Assembly (NCBI GenBank): GCA_963768855.1
Contig: CAVYJM010000007.1
Span: forward strand, 32,001-96,000
Reading direction: 5' to 3'
DNA: 64,000 nucleotides
DNA from: an uncultured Thermoplasmata archaeon
GTDB lineage: Archaea > Thermoplasmatota > Thermoplasmata > RBG-16-68-12
Shown: piece after piece, positions 4,235 through 56,448 of the stretch
Position numbering within the stretch: position 1 is the first letter of the stretch
Layout of the letters: the number at the start of each line of letters is the position of its first letter
The notes under the pieces: generated by a model
The model's database searches: none
What the model was told of the DNA's origin: nothing
The model's input: the letters and a program-made list of their open reading frames with translations, nothing else
Position numbers and translations under genes: made by a program

Positions 4235-4630
4235 TCAGCCCTGCCGCTTGCGCTGGGCCTTGTCCTTGAGGTTCCGGGCGGCGCGCTCCGTCGCATCCGC
4301 GACTTTCTCGACCGCCGGGCTGACGGCCTTGACGGTCTTGTCCGCGGCGTCCTTCGTCACCTGGAAGGCCTTGTCCGCCGCGGGCTTGAGCGCGCGGGTC
4401 GTGTCTTCGAACGCGGGGCGGATTGCCTTGACCGCCCTGTCAACGGTCGGTTCGACCGCCTTGGCGGCGCGGTCGAGCGCCCGGCCCGCCGTGTCGACGA
4501 CGTCCTTCGTGACGCGGGTCACGGTCTTCACGACATGGTCCACCGGGTCCACGACCGCAGCGCACTGGGTGCAGTAGGTGGCATTGGCCGGGAGCGCGGA
4601 TCCGCACTGGGGACAGTACATCGGGTTCAC
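4235..4630 (-). CDS. Double zinc-ribbon protein with 11-residue amphipathic repeats
   Basis: CPQC..CTQC N-terminus; prolines at residues 61, 72, 83 and 105. Confidence 0.75.
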   Translation of the reverse strand: MNPMYCPQCGSALPANATYCTQCAAVVDPVDHVVKTVTRVTKDVVDTAGRALDRAAKAVEPTVDRAVKAIRPAFEDTTRALKPAADKAFQVTKDAADKTVKAVSPAVEKVADATERAARNLKDKAQRKRQG

Positions 4631-49700: not shown

Positions 49701-49745
49701 TACTTGCGCAAAGGTTAAGCAACGCGGCGCGTGCTTGACGGTTCC

Positions 49746-50816
49746 ATGGCAAAGCGGGGTCTCACCGGCAACGAGAAGCACGTCCTGTACGGGCTCGTCC
49801 GGCACCCCGTGCTGAACGACCGCGAGCTCTCGGAACTCTTGAACATCAAGGTGTCCACAGTCACCGCCATCCGCCGTCGCCTCCGGCGCGCGGAGTACTT
49901 CGTCACGCGACGCGTCCCGATGATGCACCGGCTCGGCTGGGAGCTCCTCTACGGCGGCTCGGCGCGCCTGGACCTGACGCAGGGCGGGCAGGTCCTCCCG
50001 CGGCTCCGCGAGATCCTGAAGGACCGTTTCCCCGATCTCTTCCACATCGTCGCCTCGGCCGACCGCCTGTCGTTCCTGGGATTCGCCCGGAACTACACGG
50101 CCGCCCGACAGCAGGTCGACGAGCTCCGCCAGGCCCTGGACCGAGCGAAGCTCCTCGGCGACGCGGATCTGCACCTGACCGCGTTCCCCATGAGCCTCTC
50201 GGCCCTCCCGACGTTCTTCGATTACAGCCACTCCCTCGCCCTCGCCTTCGAGATCGACGACCGCCTCGGCATCAAGCTGGATCGGGCGAAGACCGGGGAC
50301 ATCGAGCTCACCCGCAAGGAGACGGAGGTCCTCAAGGGACTCGTGCGGTTCCCTGAGCTGAGCGACAAGGCGCTCGCGCAACGAGTCAAGGTCTCCCGCC
50401 AGGCCGTGTCGAAGATGCGGCGCGAGTTCGAGGGAGAAGGGTTGCTTCGGACGGCCCGTGTGCCCAACCTGCGGCTCCTGGGCTTCGAGCTCTATGTGAC
50501 GGCCTTCGCCCAGTTCCGCCCCTCGGCCCCGCTGAAATCCCGGGCGGATGCTTTCGAACGGCTCCTCCGGACTACGTCCACGTTCTTCCTCATCTCCGAC
50601 GAGTCGGACGCGATCGTCATCGGCACGTCGCTGTCGTACGAGCAGTTCTCGATCCTGAATGTCGGGCTCACGAAGCACTTTCAAGAGCGGGGCTTCCTGG
50701 CCTCCGACCCGGAGATCCACGTCGGGCTGACCGCCTCGACGGAGATCCTACGCAACTGCGAGTTCGGGCCGATCGTCCAGTCCCTCACGGTTCCGGAGCC
50801 GAAGTCGAGCCGATGA
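49746..50816 (+). CDS. Transcriptional regulator with two tandem HTH + effector-like repeats (Lrp/AsnC-like)
   Basis: LTGNEKHVLYGLVRHPVLNDRELS..STVTAIRRRL and LTRKETEVLKGLVRFPELSDKALA..QAVSKMRREF, each followed by P...LG.EL. Confidence 0.75.
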   Translation: MAKRGLTGNEKHVLYGLVRHPVLNDRELSELLNIKVSTVTAIRRRLRRAEYFVTRRVPMMHRLGWELLYGGSARLDLTQGGQVLPRLREILKDRFPDLFHIVASADRLSFLGFARNYTAARQQVDELRQALDRAKLLGDADLHLTAFPMSLSALPTFFDYSHSLALAFEIDDRLGIKLDRAKTGDIELTRKETEVLKGLVRFPELSDKALAQRVKVSRQAVSKMRREFEGEGLLRTARVPNLRLLGFELYVTAFAQFRPSAPLKSRADAFERLLRTTSTFFLISDESDAIVIGTSLSYEQFSILNVGLTKHFQERGFLASDPEIHVGLTASTEILRNCEFGPIVQSLTVPEPKSSR

Positions 50817-53800
50817 CCTGGTCCACCTCGCGCTCCAGAAGCGTGAGCTGGTGGTTCTCGAGCGCGGAAGGGCTCACGGACAACAGGAGGATCCCGTTGC
50901 TGATCGCGACCTGGTCGCGCATGGCCTGCACGAGCCGCAGGACCGTGAGGAAGTTGTTGTTCGTCACCAGGTACTCGATCCCGTCCAGGAGGACGACCCC
51001 CCGCTCGCGGCCGACGAACTGCTCGACGGACAGGGAGAGCTTCTCGAGGTCCTTCGGGCGGATCGCGTCCTCCTTGCCGACGTTGCTCAGCCACAGGATG
51101 GACAGATCCTCGGCGCCGAAGCGTTCCCGCAGCTTCTGGGGATAGACGCGCGTCACGCACAGACCGCGGAGGCCAGAGGCAGTCGCCTCTTGGAACAGGC
51201 GGTAGACCTCGCCCGGCTGGTCCTCTTCGACCAGGTACGTGGAGGACCCGCGGAGCGGCGCTCGGCCGGTCGCGGCGATCGAACCGGGCTCCGCCTTGGC
51301 GGCGGGCTTCTGGCGCGCGCCACAGGAGGGACACACCTCGGAGCCGGCGAGGATGAAATCTCCGCAGGCGACGCAGGCGGTCCGGGACGCACCCGGGACT
51401 CCGGGCACAGGGGCGGCCAGGGACAGCCCGCAGACGGGGCAGGAGTCCTCGCCTGGCGGGATCGGGGCGTTGCACCGCGAACAGGTGACCGTCTGGTCCG
51501 TGACGGGCTCCGCGCAGCGCGGGCACCGGCGGGTCCCCCTGGCGAGTGGCGCGCCGCAGACGGGACAGGGGATGAGAGCCTCCGCGGGGGAGGACAGCGA
51601 CTCGACGATCCGGGCCGCATCGCCGGGCTCGAGGCCCTCGATCGCCGCAAGCTCCTGCCGGGAGGCGGCGCGGAGAGCCGCGAGGCTCTTGTATCCTGCG
51701 TCGAAGAGACGCATGGCCTTCCCGGCCGTGACGCCGGGGATGCGCGTGAACTCGCGCAGGGCCTCGGCCATGTGGAGAGGGGTCAGGCCGACCGTCACGG
51801 TCTGACCGCTCACATCGTTCCATTCCACGACGTACTCGGCCTGGACGTCCCGGTCCACGAGGGAGAGGATGCGGGACCGGGTCTCCCGGGCCACCAAGTC
51901 TCTCTGGGAATCGAGCGCGGCAGCCAGGTCGCGGCTCGCCTTGAGCGTCGTGACGACGTAATCGTCCACGTCGAGGTCGATGTCCTTCCGCATCTGCTGG
52001 ATTCGACGGATGACCTCGCGCGCGTATCCCTCCGCCTGGATCTCCGGGGTTACGCGCATGTCGATGTAGAGTTCCCCGTGCGGCGTCCGGACCACGGCGA
52101 CGTCTTCCGGCAGTTTGCGGTCGAAGCGGACCATGCTCGGCTCGATCGTGACGATCTGACCCTCGACCCCGATCGAGAAGGAGCCCCTGTCCAACGCGCG
52201 CTTCACCTCGTCGGGCGGACGGCTCTCGAGGATCGAGGCGATCTTGGGCCAGAGAGCGCGGTACGCCTTGCCGATTGACGCGGGATCGGGCTTGAGGACG
52301 AGCGCGAGGCCGGGGAAATCCTCCTGCGGCTGAAGGACCGCCAGCTCCTTCGCGTTGGACTGCTCCAGGAAGATGGACCGCAGGGTCGTCAAGGCGGACG
52401 CGGCCCCGGGGGTGAGCCCCTTTCCGGCGATCAGCCGGACGGGCCACCGCAGCTTGCGCCCGCTCTTCTGCCGCTCCTTCGAGACCGCCTCGACGAGCTC
52501 CTGGACGATGGCCATCGACGCCTCGAGGTCCGCGTCGACGCGCTCCGGGTGCGGCTCCGGCCAGTCGAGCATGTGCACGCTGAGCCGGCGTCCGTCCAAG
52601 TGCTGGTACACCGCCTCCGCGATGTGCGGCGTCAGCGGGGCGAGGAGCTTGGCGAGGGTCAGGAGCGTCTCATGGAGGACGTGGTAGGCGGCCAGCTTCC
52701 CTTTGTCGTCCGCGTCGATCCACGTGCGCTCCCGCGCGAGCTTGACGTACCAGCGGGACAGGTCGTCCAGGATGAACGCATCGACCGCGCGGTACGCCCG
52801 GTGCATCGCGTAGGTCTCCATCGCCTTGTCGAAGGCCGCCTTCAGGCCCTCGAGTCGGGAAAGGAGCCAGCGGTCCTCGGGGCGGAGATGGTCGGCGAGG
52901 GATGCCAGGTCGTCCTTCGTCGGGTCGAAGCGGTCGAGGGTCATGTAAGTCGTCGCGAACCGCAGAACGTTCCACAGGATGTTGAGGGTGCGATGGCACG
53001 TCCGGACGCCCTCCTCCTGGAACGTGATGTCGTCCCAGATCGCGTTGACGGAGACGACGTAGAAGCGCAACGGGTCCACGCCGAACTTGGCGATGACCGT
53101 GGCGGGCTCGATCACGTTCCCCAGGCTCTTGTGCATCTGCCGCCCGTCGGGCCCGTTGACCCACCCGTGCATCAGGACGGCATCGTAGGGCGCCCGGTCA
53201 AAGGCGACCACGCCCGCGGCGAGCTGGGAGTAGAACCAGCCTCGCGTCTGGTCCGGACCCTCGACGATCCACTTCCCGGGCCACCATCGCTTGAACTCGT
53301 CCTCTCGCGACGGGTAGCCGAGGCTCGCCCAGCTCGCCACGCCGCTGTCGAACCACACGTCGAGCACGTCCTTGATGCGGTTCATGTCTCCGCCGCACTT
53401 CTCGCACGGCACGACGACGGCGTCGATCCACGGCCGGTGGAGGTCCATGCCCGGGGTGTAGCCCTTCGCGCGGCGGAGCTCGTCCGAGGAGCCGACCACG
53501 GTCCAGGCCGCGCACTTCGCGCACCGCCAGATCGGCAGCGGGATGCCCCAGTACCGCTGGCGGGAGAGGCACCAGTCCTTCAGGTTCCGGGTCCAGTCCG
53601 CCTCCCGCGCGGACCCGGCCCAGTCCGGGTACCACTTCACCCGCGCGATCTCCTCGAGCATCCGACCCTTGACGTCCGTCACCTTGAGGAACCACTGGAC
53701 CGTGGCGCGGAACAGGATCGGCGTCTTGCACCGCCAGCAGTGCCCGTAGGAGTGGGTGACCTTGTCCTCCGCGAAGAGGGCATGGAGCGTCTTCAGATCC

Positions 53801-54936
53801 TCGACGATGACCGGGTTCGCCTCGCGCACGTGCATGCCGGCGTAGGCGCCCGCGTCCGCGACGTACCGGCCGCGCTCGTCGACGGGGGAGAAGGTCGGGA
53901 TCCCGAGGCGCTGCCCGAGCTCGAAGTCCTCGGGTCCGTGACCCGGAGCGCTGTGGACGAGGCCCGTCCGCTCCGCCTCGACGATGTCGGAGGGGACGAC
54001 CTTGTGGACCCATTGACCCTGGACGTTCGCCTGGTACGGCACCTTCGGGGCGAGCGGGTTGACGTACGCGGTCCCGAGGAGCTCCGCGCCCTTCGCCTTC
54101 GAGACGACCTCGTAGACCTTCACGCCCCCGAGGGCCATGACCGCCGGGACGGCCGACTCGAGGAGCCAGAGGAACTCGGACCGCTCTCCGTGCGAGACGC
54201 GCACCTTGGCGTACGTGAAGTCGGGATGGGCGGCGATCGCCATGTTCGCGGGGAGCGTCCACGGCGTCGTGGTCCAGATGAGGAGGGACTCGTTCGGCCG
54301 CTCCGCGAGGGGGAACTTGACGTAGACGGACAGGTCCGTCTCGTCCGCGTACTCGACCTCGGCCTCCGCGAGCGCGGTCTCGCATCGGGCGCACCACTGC
54401 AGGGAGCGGAGGGCCTCGTACAGGAGACCGCGCTCGAAGGCCCGCCGGAAGGTCCACCAGGCGCCCTCGATGTACTCGTTCTTGATCGTCATGTACGGGC
54501 GCTCCCAGTCGAGCCAGACGCCGAGGGACTGGAACGCCACGTTCATCTTGCCGAGGAGGTCGACGGAGAAGTCGCGGCAGGCGTTCACGAACTTCTCGAT
54601 CCCGAGCTCCTCGATCTCCTTCTTGTTCGTGATGCCGAGGGTCTTCTCGACCTGGACCTCGATCGGGAGGCCGTGCATGTCGTACCCGGCCTGGTCCCGC
54701 ACGTGGTACCCGTGCATCCGCCGCCACCGCACGACCGCGTCCTTCACGGTCTTGTTCAGGACCTGGCCCAGGTGGATCGCGCCGGTCGTGTACGGGGGTC
54801 CGTCCACGAAGTAGTAGTCCTTGTCCTTCTCGCGCGCGGCGACCGTCTTCGCGTACGCCCTCGTGCGCACCCAGAAGTCTTGGACCGATTTCTCCAACTC
54901 GAGGGGCTTGTACTCGCTCTCCGCCTGCTTGATCAT
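50785..54936 (-). CDS. ileS: Isoleucine-tRNA ligase with C-terminal HhH + zinc-ribbon + DUF835 extension
   Basis: DGPPYTTG.IHLG, GYDMHGLPIE, WTTTPWTLP.N, GLVHSAPGHG, SRQRYWG.PLP, EGPDQTRGWF, QMHKSLGN, WYV; the frame continues 328 aa without a stop. Confidence 0.96.
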   Translation of the reverse strand: MIKQAESEYKPLELEKSVQDFWVRTRAYAKTVAAREKDKDYYFVDGPPYTTGAIHLGQVLNKTVKDAVVRWRRMHGYHVRDQAGYDMHGLPIEVQVEKTLGITNKKEIEELGIEKFVNACRDFSVDLLGKMNVAFQSLGVWLDWERPYMTIKNEYIEGAWWTFRRAFERGLLYEALRSLQWCARCETALAEAEVEYADETDLSVYVKFPLAERPNESLLIWTTTPWTLPANMAIAAHPDFTYAKVRVSHGERSEFLWLLESAVPAVMALGGVKVYEVVSKAKGAELLGTAYVNPLAPKVPYQANVQGQWVHKVVPSDIVEAERTGLVHSAPGHGPEDFELGQRLGIPTFSPVDERGRYVADAGAYAGMHVREANPVIVEDLKTLHALFAEDKVTHSYGHCWRCKTPILFRATVQWFLKVTDVKGRMLEEIARVKWYPDWAGSAREADWTRNLKDWCLSRQRYWGIPLPIWRCAKCAAWTVVGSSDELRRAKGYTPGMDLHRPWIDAVVVPCEKCGGDMNRIKDVLDVWFDSGVASWASLGYPSREDEFKRWWPGKWIVEGPDQTRGWFYSQLAAGVVAFDRAPYDAVLMHGWVNGPDGRQMHKSLGNVIEPATVIAKFGVDPLRFYVVSVNAIWDDITFQEEGVRTCHRTLNILWNVLRFATTYMTLDRFDPTKDDLASLADHLRPEDRWLLSRLEGLKAAFDKAMETYAMHRAYRAVDAFILDDLSRWYVKLARERTWIDADDKGKLAAYHVLHETLLTLAKLLAPLTPHIAEAVYQHLDGRRLSVHMLDWPEPHPERVDADLEASMAIVQELVEAVSKERQKSGRKLRWPVRLIAGKGLTPGAASALTTLRSIFLEQSNAKELAVLQPQEDFPGLALVLKPDPASIGKAYRALWPKIASILESRPPDEVKRALDRGSFSIGVEGQIVTIEPSMVRFDRKLPEDVAVVRTPHGELYIDMRVTPEIQAEGYAREVIRRIQQMRKDIDLDVDDYVVTTLKASRDLAAALDSQRDLVARETRSRILSLVDRDVQAEYVVEWNDVSGQTVTVGLTPLHMAEALREFTRIPGVTAGKAMRLFDAGYKSLAALRAASRQELAAIEGLEPGDAARIVESLSSPAEALIPCPVCGAPLARGTRRCPRCAEPVTDQTVTCSRCNAPIPPGEDSCPVCGLSLAAPVPGVPGASRTACVACGDFILAGSEVCPSCGARQKPAAKAEPGSIAATGRAPLRGSSTYLVEEDQPGEVYRLFQEATASGLRGLCVTRVYPQKLRERFGAEDLSILWLSNVGKEDAIRPKDLEKLSLSVEQFVGRERGVVLLDGIEYLVTNNNFLTVLRLVQAMRDQVAISNGILLLSVSPSALENHQLTLLEREVDQVIGSTSAPEP

Positions 54937-55157: not shown

Positions 55158-55424
55158 TTATAGGACTTTGGTCTCGTCATCAAGACGGAGCCGACTCGCG
55201 AAGCCCCAGACCAGTGAGAGCGCGACGAGCACGAGGAGAATCCCGAGGATCATCCCGCCGAGGAAGACGAGGATGTCCTCCGGGAGGAGCCAGGCGCCGA
55301 ACCCGGAGACGAACAGGACGACAATCCCCAGCCCGCCCACGCGCACGCTGAGCTTCGCCTTGCGCTGGGACTGCTCCTTCGCCTCCCGCTCCCGCTCCGC
55401 GGCCGTCCCGCGCGGCCTGGCCAT
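55158..55424 (-). CDS. Small 2-TM membrane protein
   Basis: Charged N-terminus followed by two TM helices. Confidence 0.65.
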   Translation of the reverse strand: MARPRGTAAEREREAKEQSQRKAKLSVRVGGLGIVVLFVSGFGAWLLPEDILVFLGGMILGILLVLVALSLVWGFASRLRLDDETKVL

Positions 55425-55518
55425 CGCTCCTCCAACCGCCCGCGGTTATTTGACTTCTCCCCCGAGCACACATCGTCCATGCGCAAACGTCAAGTAGCGC
55501 TCCACGAATCGACCGGAC

Positions 55519-56448
55519 ATGGCGCCCAAGCGCGACTTCCTCTCCATGCTCGACGTCGAGAAGGACCTCGTCGGGGTCCTCGAGCTCGCCGCGAGCATCA
55601 AGAACCGGACCAAAGCGGGCGAACACTACGAGCCCCTGCGGGGGAAGAGCCTCGCGATGATCTTCGAGAAGGCGTCCACCCGTACCCGGGTCTCCTTCGA
55701 GGTCGGCATGACCCAGCTCGGCGGCCACGCGCTCTTCCTCTCCCCCAATGACCTCCAGATTGGCCGCGGCGAGACGATCGCCGACACCGCGCGGGTGCTG
55801 AGCCGCTTCGTCGACGGCATCATGTACCGTGCCTACAAGAGCGAGAATGTCCGCGAACTCGCGAAGAACGCCAGCATCCCCGTGATCAACGGCCTGGACG
55901 ACAAGGAACATCCGTGCCAGATCGTCGCCGACCTCATGACGATCGTCGAGCACAAGGGGGACCTCAAGCGACTCAAGCTCGCGTACGTGGGGGACGGGAA
56001 CAACGTGTGCAACAGCCTCCTCGTCGGAGCCGCCGAGGTCGGGATGCACGCGACCGCCGGTACGCCCAAGGGATTCGAACCCGACGCCCATCTCCTCTCC
56101 GAGGCGCGGCGGATCGGCAAGGCCACCGGCGCCCGCATCGACGTGGTCCACGACCCCTTCGAAGCCGTGAAGGGCGCGGATGTCCTGTACACGGACGTCT
56201 GGGTGTCCATGGGCATGGAGAAGGAGAGGGAGGAGCGGGAGCGCATCTTCCTGCCGTACCAGGTGAACGCGAAACTCGTGGCCGCGGCGAAGAAGGACGC
56301 AATCGTCCTTCACTGCCTCCCGGCCCACCGGGGCCTCGAGATCACGGACGAGGTCGTGGATGGCCCGCAGAGCGTCGTCTTCGACGAGGCCGAGAACCGG
56401 CTGCACGCGCAGAAGGCGATCCTCGTCCGCCTCCTAGGCGGCGAGTGA
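55519..56448 (+). CDS. argF: Ornithine carbamoyltransferase
   Basis: FEKASTRTR, HPCQ, GDGNNV, TDVWVSMG, HCLPAHRG. Confidence 0.96.
   Translation: MAPKRDFLSMLDVEKDLVGVLELAASIKNRTKAGEHYEPLRGKSLAMIFEKASTRTRVSFEVGMTQLGGHALFLSPNDLQIGRGETIADTARVLSRFVDGIMYRAYKSENVRELAKNASIPVINGLDDKEHPCQIVADLMTIVEHKGDLKRLKLAYVGDGNNVCNSLLVGAAEVGMHATAGTPKGFEPDAHLLSEARRIGKATGARIDVVHDPFEAVKGADVLYTDVWVSMGMEKEREERERIFLPYQVNAKLVAAAKKDAIVLHCLPAHRGLEITDEVVDGPQSVVFDEAENRLHAQKAILVRLLGGE

Follow-up and report, generated by a model that had tools for sequence, protein, structure and literature searches.

An isoleucyl-tRNA synthetase with a C-terminal KaiC-like DUF835 domain in Thermoplasmata

What does a DUF835 domain do at the end of a tRNA synthetase? 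The question is raised by the isoleucyl-tRNA synthetase (IleRS) gene, ileS, of an uncultured Thermoplasmata archaeon. The gene lies in a stretch of 64,000 nucleotides (contig CAVYJM010000007.1, positions 32,001 to 96,000, assembly GCA_963768855.1) that we analysed as a whole and refer to as the window. Beyond a full-length synthetase, its product carries a tail composed of a helix-hairpin-helix (HhH) domain, three zinc ribbons and a DUF835 domain. The IleRS-DUF835 fusion is real and old. Across most families of this archaeal class, an essential single-copy enzyme bears a putative dead-ATPase module of the kind that ends receptor-type proteins.

A literature search that did not cover Makarova, Galperin and Koonin 2017 (mBio) found no published description of an IleRS-DUF835 fusion, and none was known to the initial annotation of the locus. 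Nothing relevant was found in the literature on synthetases and KaiC or on IleRS in Thermoplasmata, and DUF835 (PF05763) was mentioned only by Galperin et al. (2018). Synthetases with appended domains and 'iKaiC' output domains are both known kinds; their fusion is the new part. Eukaryotes have wired translation into signalling via synthetases with appended domains, and comparable archaeal cases are, to our knowledge, few. The fusion offers a testable entry into two questions, namely the function of DUF835 ('iKaiC') domains and the way in which archaea couple tRNA charging to regulation.

Synthetase and tail in one gene

The interval 50785-54936 (-) of the window (G000:C7:82785-86936 in genome coordinates) is one open reading frame (ORF) of 1383 aa with zero internal stops. 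The DNA across the junction of synthetase and tail (51700-51860) forms a continuous frame that reads ...VVEWNDVSGQTVTVGLTPLHMAEALREF... and holds no stop. The single frame claimed in the initial annotation is confirmed by both the ORF and the read-through of the junction, and the interval that it assigned to the tail, 50785-51771, corresponds exactly to residues 1056-1383 plus the stop codon. A stop or frameshift at the junction, or a pair of separate genes in relatives, had been named there as outcomes that would speak against a fusion; the former is seen in none of the 63 related loci, and no relative has such a pair. The ATG at 51771 (M1056) was considered as an internal start and rejected for lack of conservation: in relatives its place is taken by L, A or I.

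The IleRS body, residues 1-1040 (51817..54936, -), comprises a Rossmann fold with CP1 editing domain, an anticodon-binding domain and a C-terminal DUF5915 domain. Pfam matches are tRNA-synt_1 (residues 18-631, E 2e-121), Anticodon_1 (688-835) and DUF5915 (859-1034), and the whole protein scores 926.4 bits with NCBIfam TIGR00392 (ileS; equivalog cut-off 621.4). These residues constitute a full-length member of the archaeal/eukaryote-type IleRS family, from which the protein differs in its added 328-aa tail and in two variant motifs. The counterpart of HIGH is HLGQ (residues 55-58, window 54760-54774), in which the first His and the Gly are kept and the fourth-position His is replaced by Gln. 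The counterpart of KMSKS is QMHKS (residues 600-604, window 53125-53139), with the second Lys kept and the first replaced by Gln. Both are clade-typical variants (HLGQ in 65/105 homologues, QMHKS in 75/105). The CP1 editing motifs TTTPWT, found in 105/105 homologues, and GLVHSAPGHG (pattern GxVHxAPGHG) are intact. Within the class, the frames of relatives without a tail measure 992-1071 aa, which bears out the figure of about 1050 aa given earlier as the usual length of IleRS.

A genome-wide search identified a single ileS. Because it is the only one in the genome, the IleRS-DUF835 protein must be active and must be the working IleRS of the cell, a conclusion drawn from its sole-copy status. 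The same arrangement prevails in the family to which this genome belongs, where 30 of 35 sampled genomes have a strong ileS match and each of these has exactly one.

Searches with the tail alone matched 254 homologous proteins. The best 120 of these 254 are either proteins of 1200-1500 aa in which IleRS domains and DUF835 are combined or pieces of them (37-85% tail identity), and every full-length protein among those 120 is an IleRS with a tail. A scan of species-representative genomes yielded 80 loci from metagenome-assembled genomes of soil, aquifer, groundwater, fen and sediment origin, labelled Thermoplasmata, Methanomassiliicoccales or 'Methanobacteriota'. Core and tail are contiguous in 63/63 of the loci not cut upstream by a contig end; eight loci have frame changes, all within the core and none at the junction. 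The tail profile was matched in 255 of 401 sampled genomes of the class, for the most part within frames of 1300-1800 aa, and about three quarters of the best 150 matches are open frames of at least 1250 aa.

An assembly join or a lost stop could produce an apparent fusion by merging two genes, and public catalogues do contain many 'stand-alone' HhH-DUF835 proteins of 200-560 aa. In each such case that we examined, the gene has the synteny of ileS and is preceded by a scaffold gap, indels or a contig end. The junction is intact in all 63 loci, which derive from independent assemblies. We give an artefact of this kind practically no credence. Candidate natural split genes (P0156, P0164, P0133, P0209, P0192) were rejected, as all are in the ileS position behind N-gaps, indels or uncalled stretches. 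These five short HhH-DUF835 proteins, traced to their contigs, lie upstream of AcnX/NUDIX genes. In locus L021, 10 N at 4388-4397 shift the frame and IleRS sequence resumes beyond the gap; in L020, L102, L103 and L104 the region upstream of the tail is fragmented. There is a consequence for annotation: public catalogues split the gene at scaffold gaps and label dead copies isoleucine--tRNA ligase.

Over 105 full-length homologues, mean identity to this protein is 72% in the catalytic core (16% invariant columns) and 70% in DUF835 (19% invariant columns), which has a fixed length of 143-144 aa. From ribbon 1 to DUF835, by contrast, mean identity is 31% with 0% invariant columns, and this stretch ranges in length from 25 to 202 aa in the same set. 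Judged from sequence conservation, the tail is under strong constraint. In distant homologues the tail reaches about 1290 aa and includes extra HhH and TPR domains (P0243, P0245, P0251), while in the IleRS of Ca. Sysuiplasma acidicola (P0315) DUF835 follows about 40 residues past the core, without HhH or ribbon. What these homologues have in common is a DUF835 domain on a leash that can be of any length. L116 (G008:C3), L117 and L118 encode IleRS-like proteins, 1650-2330 aa long, in which up to about 1290 aa of tail separate the synthetase core from a terminal DUF835, and P0251 is another.

Anatomy of the tail

DUF835 occupies residues 1230-1372 (50821..51249, -). PF05763 matches residues 1241-1370 (E 1e-31, 109.5 bits against a gathering cut-off of 33.1) over model positions 5-135 of 136. 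VIA superposition of the modelled domain on FlaH (4yds) gives Z 16.1 over 154 residues at 3.0 Å, followed by KaiC CII (Z about 15), PH0284 (Z 14.8), Elp4/Elp6 (Z 14-14.9) and Rad51 (Z 13.7). The domain shares a RecA-type fold with FlaH/ArlH, PH0284 and KaiC CII (Z 14.8-16.1, 146-156 residues at 2.5-3.4 Å) but lacks their Walker A loop. Strand 1 and helix 1 are connected by the loop EDQPG, and the Walker A motif GxxxxGK[ST] is absent from this DUF835 and from all sequences in an alignment of 47 tails (A1). There was no match at E <= 0.1 to PF06745, the active KaiC/FlaH-type ATPase family. A Walker-B-like hhhhD strand is retained as VVLLD, its Asp invariant in A1. The residues TR occupy what we take to be the site of the catalytic Glu in KaiC-type ATPases, a placement made by eye and not by residue-level alignment. 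These features agree with the earlier description of the domain as a RecA/KaiC fold without a P-loop. The tail DUF835 appears to be ATPase-dead, and ATP hydrolysis is not expected.

Invariant among the tail DUF835 domains of A1 are WLS, RPKD.EKL, D..EY.TNNNF..LR..Q..RD and LLEREVD. A sequence search of solved structures returned only HhH matches and no solved DUF835 structure. A complex prediction with two DUF835 copies (tail residues 176-344, A1) scored 0.00 against a mark of 0.42, a result that counts neither way on self-association.

The remainder of the tail was also as first described, with an HhH domain and three double-CxxC ribbons ahead of DUF835, according to Pfam matches and motif positions. 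An (HhH)2 domain spans residues 1056-1115 (51592..51771, -; model pLDDT, the predicted local distance difference test score, 94-96). HHH_5 (PF14520) matches residues 1061-1114 at E 3e-9 (E 5e-10 and 40.1 bits with the tail alone, cut-off 27). In sequence, this domain comes closest to the RadA/Rad51 N-terminal domain (1pzn, E 0.002) and to the N-terminal extension of haloarchaeal eL32. The six CxxC motifs start at 1124/1138, 1152/1166 and 1188/1202, in the three pairs listed in the initial annotation. DZR, Zn_Ribbon_1 and Zn_ribbon_3 matches cover residues 1152-1208, and DZR (PF12773) scores 45.9 bits on the tail alone (gathering cut-off 27.3).

Zinc ribbon 1 (CPVC...CPRC, residues 1124-1141; 51514..51567, -) is the sole ribbon that is invariant among relatives; C85, C88, C99, R101 and C102 (tail numbering) are conserved throughout A1. 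Ribbon 2 (CSRC...CPVC, residues 1152-1169; 51430..51483, -), matched by Zn_Ribbon_1 and DZR, is variable and is missing in P0061, P0067 and P0070. Also variable is ribbon 3 (CVAC...CPSC, residues 1188-1205; 51322..51375, -; Zn_ribbon_3 at 1186-1208), which is missing or substituted in many A1 rows. It is followed by a low-complexity linker (residues 1206-1229; 51250..51321, -) that is predicted to be disordered. AlphaFold models the tail at a mean pLDDT of 86.5 and leaves tail residues 139-143 and 173-185 disordered (pLDDT < 50 in the latter). The elements constant in A1 are (HhH)2, ribbon 1 (four Cys and the Arg) and DUF835; some relatives have a second HhH inserted. Mean net charge is -2.0 for HhH and -2.1 for DUF835, and positive for ribbon 1. 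The last 11 residues and the stop codon (50785..50820, -) follow DUF835.

Tail-bearing copies with decayed catalytic motifs

Two IleRS lineages occur in the class. Type A comprises the tail-less IleRS of families f17, f20, f24 and f25, with HxGH, KMSKSKGN and WALSRxRYWG; their cores are only 34-37% identical to that of this protein. Type B is the tail-bearing lineage, with HLG[QT] and WC[ILV]SRQRYWG. A core-only tree (quick search, with support values from the Shimodaira-Hasegawa approximate likelihood-ratio test only and the A/B rooting assumed) separates the two with 100% support. The tail-less IleRS of family f4 is nested within tail-bearing type B clades (99-100% support), which indicates that its lack of a tail is a secondary loss. 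The tail-less IleRS of f12 is the sister of P0315.

Five genomes (families f15, f26 and f27) encode both a canonical type A enzyme of 992-1071 aa and a long, tail-bearing type B copy. The motifs of the type B copies are decayed (HIGL or TLGL in place of HIGH; RMNVS or nothing in place of KMSKS). Eight other cluster representatives have lost HIGH, KMSKS and the editing motifs and have kept the full-length scaffold. They are named 'class I tRNA ligase family protein [Ca. Thermoplasmatota archaeon]'. Their identity to this protein is 20-30% in the core and 27-36% in the anticodon domain, and 45-55% in DUF835 for seven of the eight (26% in P0312). DUF835 is thus the best preserved part of these fully 'dead' copies. 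In P0256, for example, tRNA-synt_1 scores 61 bits, Anticodon_1 95 and DUF835 116. The decayed and dead forms fall within type B (98% support), on long branches that make their exact placement unsure.

The tail evidently persists after catalytic decay, and its function appears to be separable from catalysis; these natural duplicates are cases in which the module has outlived the enzyme activity. Its retention even there makes it very probable that the tail has a second, non-catalytic job in the enzyme. In genus g4 of family f3 (L123, G047:C27:100823-103279; L124), a second, tail-less IleRS of 982 aa is found beside the fused one; in the core tree it forms a basal branch of the type A lineage.

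Possible roles of the tail

DUF835 has been classed as 'iKaiC' (inactivated KaiC), an output domain of response regulators (Galperin et al., 2018, PMC5847659). The IleRS tail has in common with such REC-, PAS- and seven-transmembrane (7TM)-DUF835 proteins the Pfam family, the motifs LWLS, LLDGxEYL and NxF, and the C-terminal placement. Its N-terminal partner, however, is an essential translation enzyme and not a sensor, and, in contrast to other DUF835 domains, those of IleRS tails have their own invariant signature (RPKDLEKLS, TNNNF, LLEREVD).

The genome encodes 13 DUF835 domains including that of IleRS. The carriers include three to four stand-alone genes, one 7TM protein with two DUF835 domains, one TPR/ARPP-1 fusion and one DnaA-type AAA+ fusion; the remaining DUF835 proteins have no further Pfam match. 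Also present are about 24 genes for KaiC-like ATPases. One of these ends 4 nt ahead of the 7TM-2xDUF835 gene, another abuts a weak DUF835-like frame, and a third is 1.7 kb from the DnaA-DUF835 gene. The product of the latter gene (L013:4-2124 (-) = G000:C6:737014-739137) has 707 aa, with a DnaA-type AAA+ core (PF00308, E 1e-48), an Hda lid and a C-terminal DUF835. Two tandem stand-alone DUF835 genes (L005:715-2007 (-) and L005:2025-3251 (-) = G000:C9:37712-40248) are directly downstream of an Orc1/Cdc6 gene. A further stand-alone DUF835 gene (L002:1375-1920 (+), G000:C12) is directly upstream of a TGT + DUF5591 gene (L002:1963-3399 (+)) encoding an archaeosine-type tRNA modification enzyme.

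We favour, at an even chance, a reading in which DUF835 docks the IleRS body to proteins of a KaiC-like/DUF835 network and confers on it a second, non-catalytic role. The body, which binds isoleucine, ATP and tRNA-Ile, would be plugged via DUF835 into KaiC-like ATPases and DUF835 proteins, and the second role might be regulation of tRNA charging or reporting of charging status. HhH and ribbons would serve as an accessory tether or nucleic-acid contact, accessory because some lineages lack them. The interpretation offered in the initial annotation stands in part: the architecture is as described, the link to a KaiC-like network stays an interpretation, and the suggested multi-synthetase complex gains no support from the 12 further DUF835 domains in this genome, none of which is attached to a synthetase.

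Several observations weigh against docking to such a network. There is no KaiC-like gene near ileS within the window, the nearest on the contig being about 74 kb away, and adjacency of DUF835 and KaiC-like genes amounts to two or three cases in one genome. The degenerate and dead copies fall in a long-branched clade. Families f4 and f12 have lost the tail from the same IleRS lineage with no visible replacement, and therefore the second job would be dispensable. HhH domains and zinc ribbons are, moreover, classic nucleic-acid binders, which leaves room for a role at tRNA or DNA.

In a more specific form, which we regard as unlikely, IleRS-DUF835 would be an archaeal sensor of amino-acid or tRNA charging status, its dead KaiC-like domain relaying to KaiC-like ATPase hubs. 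Isoleucine or uncharged tRNA-Ile would be the signal read by the synthetase body; the dead tail-bearing copies would be dedicated sensors, relieved of charging by the second IleRS. We know of no stringent-response sensor in these organisms. In GCN2, a HisRS-like pseudo-synthetase domain acts as sensor, and the likeness, by analogy only, is that a synthetase body is joined to a signalling module in both. Also GCN2-like are the sister-lineage copies that have no catalytic motifs and have kept the anticodon-binding domain. There is, however, no homology to GCN2 and no kinase, and the synthetase in this genome is still the working enzyme. If true, the charging-status sensor would correspond in function to the HisRS-like domain of GCN2.

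The tail may instead be an appendage that binds tRNA in cis, with HhH, ribbon and RecA-like domain holding tRNA-Ile and raising charging efficiency, as appended domains of the Trbp111/EMAPII/Arc1p type do in other synthetases. Consistent with this, nucleic acid is the typical ligand of HhH domains and ribbons, ribbon 1 is net positive and includes an Arg that never varies, the dead copies retain the anticodon-binding domain, and the structural matches include the RecA-fold proteins Elp4/Elp6, which bind tRNA in Elongator. The tail is, however, retained where the catalytic motifs are gone and therefore cannot serve charging there. HhH and DUF835 are on average neutral to acidic, P0315 has neither HhH nor ribbon, and the Pfam hits at E <= 0.1 include no tRNA_bind-type (Trbp111/EMAPII) domain. 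A spacer of such variable length, in tails of up to about 1290 aa, is also hard to square with a fixed spot by the tRNA. We consider a cis-acting tRNA appendage possible but doubtful. Quite unlikely, in our view, is that DUF835 merely self-associates into rings or dimers with no outside partner, by which an IleRS that is normally a monomer would become an oligomer or condensate scaffold. The nearest folds, KaiC, PH0284 and Rad51, do form rings or filaments, yet self-association leaves unexplained the presence of the domain at the end of a dozen unrelated proteins of sensor type and the location of some of their genes beside those for KaiC-like ATPases.

Also to be weighed is a DNA-linked moonlighting role, in which a tail of RadA/Rad51 layout would tether IleRS to DNA or to replication and repair factors. 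A Foldseek alignment of about 350 columns matches the whole tail, its parts in order, to Rad51/RadA, and VIA reaches Z 13.5 for model residues 19-343. The order of parts is shared (an N-terminal (HhH)2, a linker and a RecA-fold core), the HhH domain is nearest in sequence to that of RadA, and elsewhere in this genome DUF835 genes are found behind an Orc1/Cdc6 gene or joined to a DnaA-type AAA+ core. Although HhH and DUF835 each match Rad51/RadA, their relative placement differs (root mean square deviation 14-21 Å). In contrast to RadA/Rad51, the tail has no P-loop, has zinc ribbons in its linker, and has a core nearer to FlaH/KaiC (Z 16.1) than to Rad51 (Z 13.7). TIGR02236 (RadA) reaches 18-21 bits against a cut-off of 361, in the HhH domain only, and HhH is absent from P0315. 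The likeness to RadA/Rad51 may be a resemblance of layout only, perhaps convergent, and we consider a tether to DNA improbable. Docking to KaiC-like and DUF835 proteins is the reading that we retain.

Stand-alone DUF835 genes close to the IleRS type occur in family f3. The genomes G310, G121 and G047 (L129, L130, L131) encode, in addition to a fused IleRS, a stand-alone DUF835 protein of 204-218 aa that matches the tail profile at E 1e-71 to 1e-75. At L129:1996-7518 the gene lies in a conserved run that consists of a class II synthetase (tRNA-synt_2b + HGTP_anticodon), the DUF835 protein, a 143-aa protein and a Ras-family GTPase, followed by Elp3 on the opposite strand. In L130 and L131 there is one additional gene between synthetase and DUF835, Asn_synthase-like in L131. 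The 143-aa protein has a hydrophobic C terminus and no Pfam match, and as a query it found no homologue in the genome studied here.

In the window, the neighbours of ileS are genes for AcnX and AcnX_swivel-NUDIX and a convergent gene with two winged helix-turn-helix domains. The latter (49731-50816 (+)) is a 361-aa ORF with domains of the TrmB/MarR type, and the last 32 nt of ileS overlap its 3' end. Upstream of ileS is a 408-aa ORF (55180-56406 (-)) with zero Pfam matches, the position of which is taken by a FEN1/XPG gene in the relatives L020 and L021.

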